Shown one piece after another: positions 8,212 to 9,368 of a DNA stretch of 12,767 nt; position 1 is the first letter of the stretch, and each line of letters starts with the position of its first letter. The stretch covers positions 1 to 12,767 of IMG/VR virus record IMGVR_UViG_2526164619_000005. One strand, written 5' to 3'. The notes below the pieces were generated by a model. That model was not told the origin of the DNA, made no database searches, and saw nothing but the letters and a program-made list of their open reading frames with translations. A program made the position numbers and the translations under genes. This DNA comes from a virus (taxonomy: Duplodnaviria > Heunggongvirae > Uroviricota > Caudoviricetes).

Positions 8212-8499
8212 ATGAGCAGAAAAAACCAACGTTACTCTAAAGAGTTCAAAGCCGAAGCTGTCAGAACGGTTCTTGAAAATCAACTTTCGATCAGTGAAGG
8301 CGCTTCCCGATTATCCCTTCCTGAAGGCACTTTAGGACAATGGGTTACCGCCGCCAGAAAAGGGCTCGGTACTCCTGGTTCCCGCACGGTGGCTGAACTG
8401 GAATCTGAAATTCTGCAACTGCGTAAGGCGTTAAATGAAGCTCGCCTTGAGCGAGATATATTAAAAAAGCAACAGCGTATTTTGCACAGGAGTCGCTGA
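8212..8499 (+). CDS. IS600-like orfA with an altered C-terminus (95 aa)
   Basis: MSRKNQRYSKEFKAEAVRTVLENQLSISEGASRLSLPEGTLGQWV...ERDILKK, then QQRILHRSR stop. The usual family tail (ATAYFAQESLKNTR) is encoded in the -1 frame from the A_AAA_AAG site at 8463-8469. Confidence 0.75.
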   Translation: MSRKNQRYSKEFKAEAVRTVLENQLSISEGASRLSLPEGTLGQWVTAARKGLGTPGSRTVAELESEILQLRKALNEARLERDILKKQQRILHRSR

Positions 8500-8548
8500 A
8501 AAATACGCGTTAATCGAACAATGGCGACAACAATTTCCCATTGAAGCG

Positions 8549-9368
8549 ATGTGTCAGGTATTTGGTGTATCCAGGAGCGGTTATTACAACTGGGTACAGC
8601 ATGAACCCTCAGACAGAAAACAAAGTGATGAGCGGCTAAAACTGGAGATTAAGGTGGCACATATCCGCACTCGCGAAACATATGGAACCCGGCGGCTCCA
8701 GACGGAGCTGGCAGAGAATGGCATCATCGTTGGTCGTGACCGACTGGCACGTCTTCGTAAGGAGCTAAGGCTACGCTGTAAGCAGAAACGCAAGTTCAGA
8801 GCGACTACGAACCCGAACCACAATCTGCCAGTTGCGCCAAATCTGCTGAACCAGACGTTCGCTCCTACAGCACCAAATCAGGTCTGGGTGGCGGACCTGA
8901 CGTATGTTGCCACACAGGAGGGATGGTTGTACCTCGCTGGCATCAAAGATGTTTATACGTGCGAAATTGTCGGCTACGCCATGGGAGAGCGCATGACAAA
9001 AGAGCTGACAGGTAAAGCCCTGTTTATGGCGCTCAGGAGCCAGCGCCCACCTGCCGGGCTAATCCACCACTCTGATCGAGGTTCACAGTACTGCGCATAC
9101 GATTACCGGGTCATACAGGAGCAGTCTGGTCTGAAAACATCAATGTCGCGTAAAGGTAACTCGTTACGACAACGCTCCGATGGAAAGCTTCTGGGGAACG
9201 CTGAAAAATGAGAGCCTGAGCCACTATCGTTTTAATAACCGGGATGAAGCCATCTCAGTAATACGGGGATACATTGAGATTTTCTACAATCGTCAGCGTC
9301 GTCACTCTCGTCTGGGGAATATCTCCCCGGCAGCCTTCAGGGAAAAATATCATCAGATGGCTGCTTAA
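8549..9368 (+). pseudogene. IS600-like orfB (DDE transposase catalytic domain), frameshifted
   Basis: 8549-9211 reads MCQVFGVSRSGYYNWVQ...HHSDRGSQYCAYDY...SMSRKGN then goes out of frame; 9180-9368 continues MESFWGTLKNESL...KYHQMAA in another frame. An extra base lies near 9161-9164 (aactcgttacgac where the conserved KGNCYDNAP motif needs aactgttacgac). Confidence 0.75.

Follow-up and report, generated by a model that had tools for sequence, protein, structure and literature searches.

In the insertion sequences IS911, IS3 and IS150, OrfA is produced by normal decoding and OrfAB by a -1 ribosomal slip. This scheme is also covered by Sharma et al. 2014 (PMC4066793), and its basis, a heptamer of Lys codons with a structure downstream, is common to these elements, to E. 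coli dnaX (A_AAA_AAG) and to the IS600 copy described here. The same authors place IS600 in their cluster A_AAA_AAA_1, with the motif at codon 86, an OrfA of 100 aa and a frameshift product of 385 aa; they describe -1 frameshifting in IS600 as a proven case, stimulated by a stem-loop, and A_AAA_AAG belongs to the heptamers on which -1 slippage in E. coli is most efficient (PMC4066793). In the wild-type element normal decoding gives the 100-aa OrfA, and a -1 slip on A_AAA_AAA, assisted by the downstream hairpin, gives the 385-aa OrfAB transposase.

The DNA analyzed here, which we call the window, is the entire 12,767-bp contig AKMY01000008.1 of Shigella flexneri K-315 (proteins EIQ25823-25). 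Shigella genomes commonly contain IS copies that are defective, as well as frameshift pseudogenes. Identity to annotated copies, inverted repeats and length define a full-length IS600 (IS3 family, IS3 group) at 8148-9411 on the + strand, 1264 bp long and with the ends TGAGG...CCTCA. The window was aligned first with four annotated IS600 copies and later with ten further copies. Identity to annotated copies from E. coli and Shigella ranged from 99.1 to 99.8%, and the element matches hundreds of copies on E. coli chromosomes and on Shigella and E. coli plasmids that are annotated as "IS3-like element IS600 family transposase". Its terminal inverted repeats are imperfect (arms 8145-8174 and 9385-9414), and both ends of the element are, judged by their sequence, intact. 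The ISfinder reference for IS600 (1264 bp) is 99.8% identical over 1264 bp and has the same ends, orfA, orfB and hairpin; what sets the window copy apart from this reference is a run of six rather than seven A residues (A6 for A7), an additional C at 9162, a Glu to Gly change at 9268, the lack of a target-site duplication (CTG at 8145-8147 on the left versus CAG at 9412-9414 on the right) and a 710-bp deletion in the flanking DNA.

Within the element, alignment with the nearest IS600 haplotype revealed three differences. The first lies in the frameshift motif, where all four references have TT-AAAAAAA-G (A7G) and the window has TT-AAAAAA-G, with the A6 run at 8463-8468 and the G at 8469. An earlier note on this DNA had recognized the heptamer A_AAA_AAG at 8463-8469, which stands in the orfA frame on the + strand, and had placed a one-base deletion exactly in the programmed-frameshift motif; comparison with the references bears out both statements. 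It had further taken the lost base to be a G following AAG, and this is ruled out: AAAAAAGG occurs in no reference, 212 of the 223 copies in the censuses described below are A7G, and the base that was lost is one A of the A7. The wild-type IS600 motif is A_AAA_AAA followed by G, so that the AAG heptamer of the window, although present as claimed, was itself made by the deletion. The second difference is the C inserted at 9162 (+ strand), where the window has GGTAACTCGTTAC and every other copy compared has GGTAACT-GTTAC; this insertion, which is private to the window contig, had been localized by the note to 9161-9164 and correctly described as breaking orfB. The two indels are opposite in sign, as had also been noted, and since they cancel, the length of the element stays at 1264 bp with no net change. 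The third difference, an A to G substitution at 9268 (GGGAA to GGGGA) that had gone unmentioned, is an E to G missense change private to the window copy.

[quoted passage not shown] In the zero frame orfA (8212-8499, + strand) encodes 95 aa ending in ...DILKKQQRILHRSR; its HTH_Tnp_1 domain is intact, and QQRILHRSR stands in place of the 14 canonical C-terminal residues. Translation in the -1 frame gives the canonical tail, ATAYFAQESLKNTR, at 8469-8513 (+ strand). The first part of orfB (8465-9211, + strand), in the +1 frame, is open from 8465 and contains HTH_21, most of the rve domain, D229 and D289 before it reaches a premature stop at 9211 caused by the inserted C. The second part (9165-9368, + strand) is in the third frame, and holds E325 (APMESFW), the C-terminus of the rve_2/rve_3 domain and the substitution at 9268. 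The inserted C lies between D289 (HHSDRG) and E325, and the DDE triad is not contained within one frame. The usual passage from orfA to orfB in the -1 frame, giving the 385-aa OrfAB, is absent from the window copy, in which orfB is +1 and split at 9162. Because repair of both indels in silico restored exactly the 100-aa OrfA and the 385-aa OrfAB, the copy is a damaged IS600 and not a member of another family; the window element is IS600 itself. We also considered that the two opposite indels might compensate each other, and rejected this, as the approximately 700 nt between them, which encode two of the three catalytic residues, share a frame with neither adjoining part.

With A7 contracted to A6, decoding in the zero frame would yield the 95-aa OrfA with its changed tail, while the A_AAA_AAG thus created, which is in frame and highly slippery, would on a -1 slip yield the canonical 100-aa OrfA. 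The predicted product of the slip is therefore the one that the earlier note had foreseen, OrfA and not OrfAB. A predicted hairpin at 8471-8511 (+ strand; core GCGUAUUUU / AAAAUACGC, starting 5 nt past the heptamer) is likely to be the -1 frameshift stimulator, with an unremarkable predicted stability (-13.8 kcal/mol, and a z of only -1.45, for the 76-nt stretch 8455-8530). In contrast to IS911, IS3 and IS150, the -1 slip in the window copy is predicted to re-enter the OrfA tail and not orfB: the signal is intact and the frame is wrong. Lying in the +1 frame, orfB would be beyond the reach of the programmed -1 slip, and synthesis of OrfAB would require a shift of +1 or -2. Independently of this, the C at 9162 would cut orfB between D289 and E325; because the insertion separates E325 from the preceding residues, any orfB product would lack the third catalytic residue, and both OrfB and OrfAB are predicted to be catalytically dead. 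The window IS600 is accordingly described here as a predicted transposase-null, non-autonomous relic, its translation products and activity alike being deduced from the DNA. It could at most be mobilized by the transposase of other IS600 copies, and it may still be a source of OrfA.

The right end of the element truncates a nanS-p-like sialate O-acetylesterase gene (9393-10781, - strand), the 462-aa product of which would be 641 aa if uninterrupted; the last residues of the truncated product are read from IS600. Three tRNA genes are found at 11270-11519 (- strand), namely Met-CAT (likely ileZ-type), Arg-TCG and Arg-TCT, in the arrangement seen upstream of stx in Stx phages. No stx genes are present between these tRNAs and nanS-p (10782-11269), and the region reads as an Stx-phage-like backbone without toxin genes. 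Further along, a phage DNA methylase gene (11560-12430, - strand) is split into two ORFs by a 10-bp tandem duplication at 12023-12032. The contig is rich in insertion sequences, with elements in 245-2950, 3014-4189 and 12417-12767; they include an IS110-family (ISSso6-like) transposase gene, an IS1 at the contig end and an IS66-family element, the tnpC gene of which is split into three ORFs by homopolymer indels at 443, 1778 and 2053 relative to the intact copy in E. coli FDAARGOS_943.

The exact IS600/nanS-p right junction of the window recurs on two prophage contigs (our loci L108 and L109) that belong to other genomes. In L108 the element is a simple insertion flanked by CAG on both sides, and its excision in silico restores the 641-aa NanS-p. 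The IS600 of L109 is itself interrupted, at 9496-10799, by a 1304-bp element that starts with TGAACCGCCCCGGG... and has about 8 bp duplicated at the junction; from its terminal sequence this appears to be an IS629/IS1203-like element. The methylase duplication of the window is absent from both contigs, and a protein look-up found the resulting 152-aa product only on the window contig. In both orthologs IS600 has A7, lacks the extra C and has A at 9268, from which it follows that the A6, the inserted C and the 9268 G of K-315 are derived, and that they either post-date the insertion or are assembly errors. About 710 bp that are present in L108, made up of the 3'-terminal portion of nanS-p, an intergenic stretch and the 5'-terminal portion of a DUF1378 gene, are deleted from the window directly at the left end of IS600, and this deletion is likewise derived in the K-315 lineage. 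The target-site duplication is missing, with CTG in place of CAG, because the deletion took its left member. Either an IS-mediated adjacent deletion or recombination of one IS600 with another could have produced the junction.

Outside the element, about 12 substitutions over 3 kb of flanking DNA separate the window from L108, and the IS600 of each lineage has two to four private changes; at this rate, three changes in 1264 bp are what ordinary divergence would be expected to produce. We conclude, with a probability of roughly 0.75, that the window holds a genuine IS600 which became fixed in nanS-p of a Stx-phage-like K-315 prophage remnant without stx and appears to have decayed in place since its insertion. 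The E to G change at 9268 and the deletion of about 710 bp at the left end would add to this decay.

The A6 run need not have arisen where it now stands. Recombination or conversion with another IS600 copy of the A6 type might have imported it, and the same event could have made the 710-bp deletion; we consider this unlikely. It would agree with the missing target duplication, with a deletion that ends exactly at the IS600 end, and with the left part of the window copy, which has the haplotype (N5) of the A6 copies in S. boydii. Alleles with A6 and A7 do coexist in related genomes, the record UViG 2531839374 having both the A7 ortholog L108 and A6 copies (L118 and L166). The element's own adjacent deletion accounts for the junction equally well, however, and from the left end to the A-run there are no informative differences between the window and L108, so that a hybrid cannot be demonstrated. 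Decay of the resident copy in place remains the reading that we prefer.

The alternative left by the orthologs is a consensus error of a 2012 draft within a multi-copy repeat. It would affect at least one of the two indels, and perhaps the substitution at 9268 too, and the true copy would be intact or less damaged. No other contig searched has the inserted C or the 9268 G or encodes the 220-aa and 62-aa products, and the orthologous copies have A7 and no inserted C. Miscalling of homopolymers classically turns A7 into A6; the consensus of a draft is at its least reliable in repeats, of which the multi-copy IS600 is one; and sister plasmids lack some of the A6 runs called in long-read plasmid assemblies. 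The single-base indels in the neighbouring IS66-family element, three in number and all homopolymeric, would fit decay or miscalls alike. The window also contains a second, truncated IS600 copy at 1-244 (- strand; nt 72-315 of the element, 100% identical to the full copy), which an IS66-family end (GTAAGCG...) interrupts at nt 72 on one side; on the other, the first base of the contig falls precisely on the A-run boundary, indicating that the assembler had trouble at this site and suggesting that reads or copies in the K-315 genome differ in run length.

Against a generally error-prone contig stands the flank at 4196-8224, which includes 14 homopolymers of at least 5 nt and is 100% identical to three independent assemblies, with a fourth matching over 4248-7618. 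The inserted C is outside any homopolymer, and the other private indel of the contig, the 10-bp tandem duplication, is of a mutational type and not a typical read error. The A6 allele occurs on the same haplotype in independent genomes (e.g., L025), and the number of changes agrees with how far the flanks have diverged. Independent assemblies of the K-315-type locus, located by way of its DUF1327 protein, all break at or just inside the left end of IS600 (8144-8224) and are therefore unable to arbitrate either A6 or the inserted C. On balance we doubt that even one of the IS600 indels is an artefact, and the structural reading would be unchanged either way.

The allelic state of the A-run was surveyed in three censuses which accepted any run of six to eight A residues and together covered 223 IS600 copies, 212 of them A7G. 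The species-representative genome scan (two S. flexneri-type chromosomes and a stray contig) gave 44 A7 copies and the JGI metagenome contigs 37, with no A6 or A8 in either; the IMG/VR prophage contigs gave 131 A7, nine A6 and two A8 copies. The S. flexneri-type chromosomes in the GTDB species-representative scan were all A7, and no ortholog of the window locus was found there. A6 is thus rare (0/44, 0/37 and 9/142). By exact protein sequence, the 95-aa OrfA variant was found on 122 contigs and its T5 sister on 184, compared with at least 1000 contigs for each of the two canonical 100-aa OrfA forms. In E. coli only six records have an exact A6 copy, versus about 5500 IS600 places in the search. 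The finished chromosome of S. boydii Sb227, with a total of about 20 copies of IS600 (Hawkey et al. 2020), has A6 at four sites, three full-length and one truncated.

Although rare, A6 recurs. It is found at orthologous sites across different assemblies (L008/L012 and L013/L118), and at least three IS600 haplotypes carry it, which means that it arose repeatedly; from the copies compared, we regard it as a real, recurrent minority allele elsewhere. Copies with A6 that are full-length (1263 bp) and have an uninterrupted 272-aa orfB exist at many sites, several of them with 3-bp duplications. The A6 copies of S. boydii (Sb227 and CDC-type) and of a few E. coli (O145:H28 RM12581, FDAARGOS_944) have the identical A6G and 95-aa OrfA. 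They retain the intact 272-aa orfB, many with 3-bp duplications, whereas the window copy adds the inserted C and the missense change. That C was looked for at 5990 places in E. coli, at 1680 on plasmids and at all other loci fetched, and was found at none of them. The earlier note had allowed that another IS600 might carry the window sequence at both sites of change; many A6 copies do so at the first, and none does at the second. In our search of the literature the A6 allele of IS600 was nowhere described.

The two A8 copies (L177, at 6435-6473, and L200) are on IMG/VR prophage contigs and are 1265 bp long, that of L177 having a GAG duplication. An A8 run aligns orfA and orfB in one frame, and the predicted result is a constitutive OrfAB fusion made without frameshifting. 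The slippery A-run is a mutational hot spot as well as a recoding site, giving rise to A6 (OrfA-only) and A8 (in-frame fusion) alleles. As in homopolymer-tract pseudogenes and contingency-type tracts, the run varies by one base in either direction recurrently (A6, A7, A8), with a switch in the encoded product; unlike in contingency-type tracts, nothing here points to selection for switching, and the frequencies resemble mutational noise around A7.

Could A6 nevertheless be a functional state of IS600? Such copies might make a little OrfAB by a -2 or +1 shift or by RNA polymerase slippage, or serve as OrfA-only down-regulators. The A-run would then be a three-state switch, with A7 giving OrfA and frameshifted OrfAB, A8 the constitutive fusion, and A6 OrfA alone or rare OrfAB, and the A6 copies of Sb227 would have been maintained or spread by damping IS600 activity in IS-laden Shigella genomes. 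The full-length A6 copies with intact orfB and 3-bp duplications at several sites speak for such a role, as do the multiple haplotypes of origin, at least three, the existence of A8 alleles, and the frequency of A6 in Sb227 (four of approximately 20 copies), which is far above that in E. coli. The dnaX heptamer A_AAA_AAG supports -2 shifts in vitro (PMC6771820) and so gives a precedent; a -2 shift at the A6 site would give the exact wild-type OrfAB junction. Nonetheless, we hold both a functional A6 state in general and the switch with its damping role in Sb227 to be very improbable. The allele is rare overall, and A7 copies of the same haplotype coexist with A6 copies and outnumber them: the S. 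boydii-type haplotype (N5, 9158C) has A7 at nine unique prophage sites and A6 at three. Helper copies are consequently available, and transposase supplied in trans or gene conversion would suffice without any functional role for A6. At the window locus the question is moot, since the inserted C kills orfB.

The locus itself represents ordinary in-situ decay of a known IS; we see in it an IS600 that is dead and fixed within a degraded prophage, with the 710-bp deletion and the private changes marking the K-315 lineage. Only the general points are mildly interesting, namely the A-run as a hot spot, the presence of A6 at several S. boydii sites, and the RefSeq labelling. The last of these carries the main value, that of a warning to annotators: when a single base changes in the slippery run of an IS3-family element, an intact signal would silently be rewired from making transposase to making more OrfA. 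RefSeq PGAP annotates the E. coli A6 copies (L024-L027) as joined CDSs with the remark "programmed frameshift", spanning 1156 nt versus 1157 nt for A7. In these joined copies orfB is in the +1 and not the -1 frame relative to orfA, and the shift needed is no longer -1; the label probably reflects alignment-driven annotation and not biology. As A6 copies are labelled "programmed frameshift" transposases in RefSeq, counts of IS in Shigella overestimate the autonomous elements. Database records of IS600 gave one further oddity, a 1380-bp contig with a coverage of 1.3 in the assembly of Streptomyces sp. UG1 (NZ_JBNGGG010000135.1; L042). It consists of a complete IS600, and it almost certainly entered that assembly as contamination from E. 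coli or Shigella.
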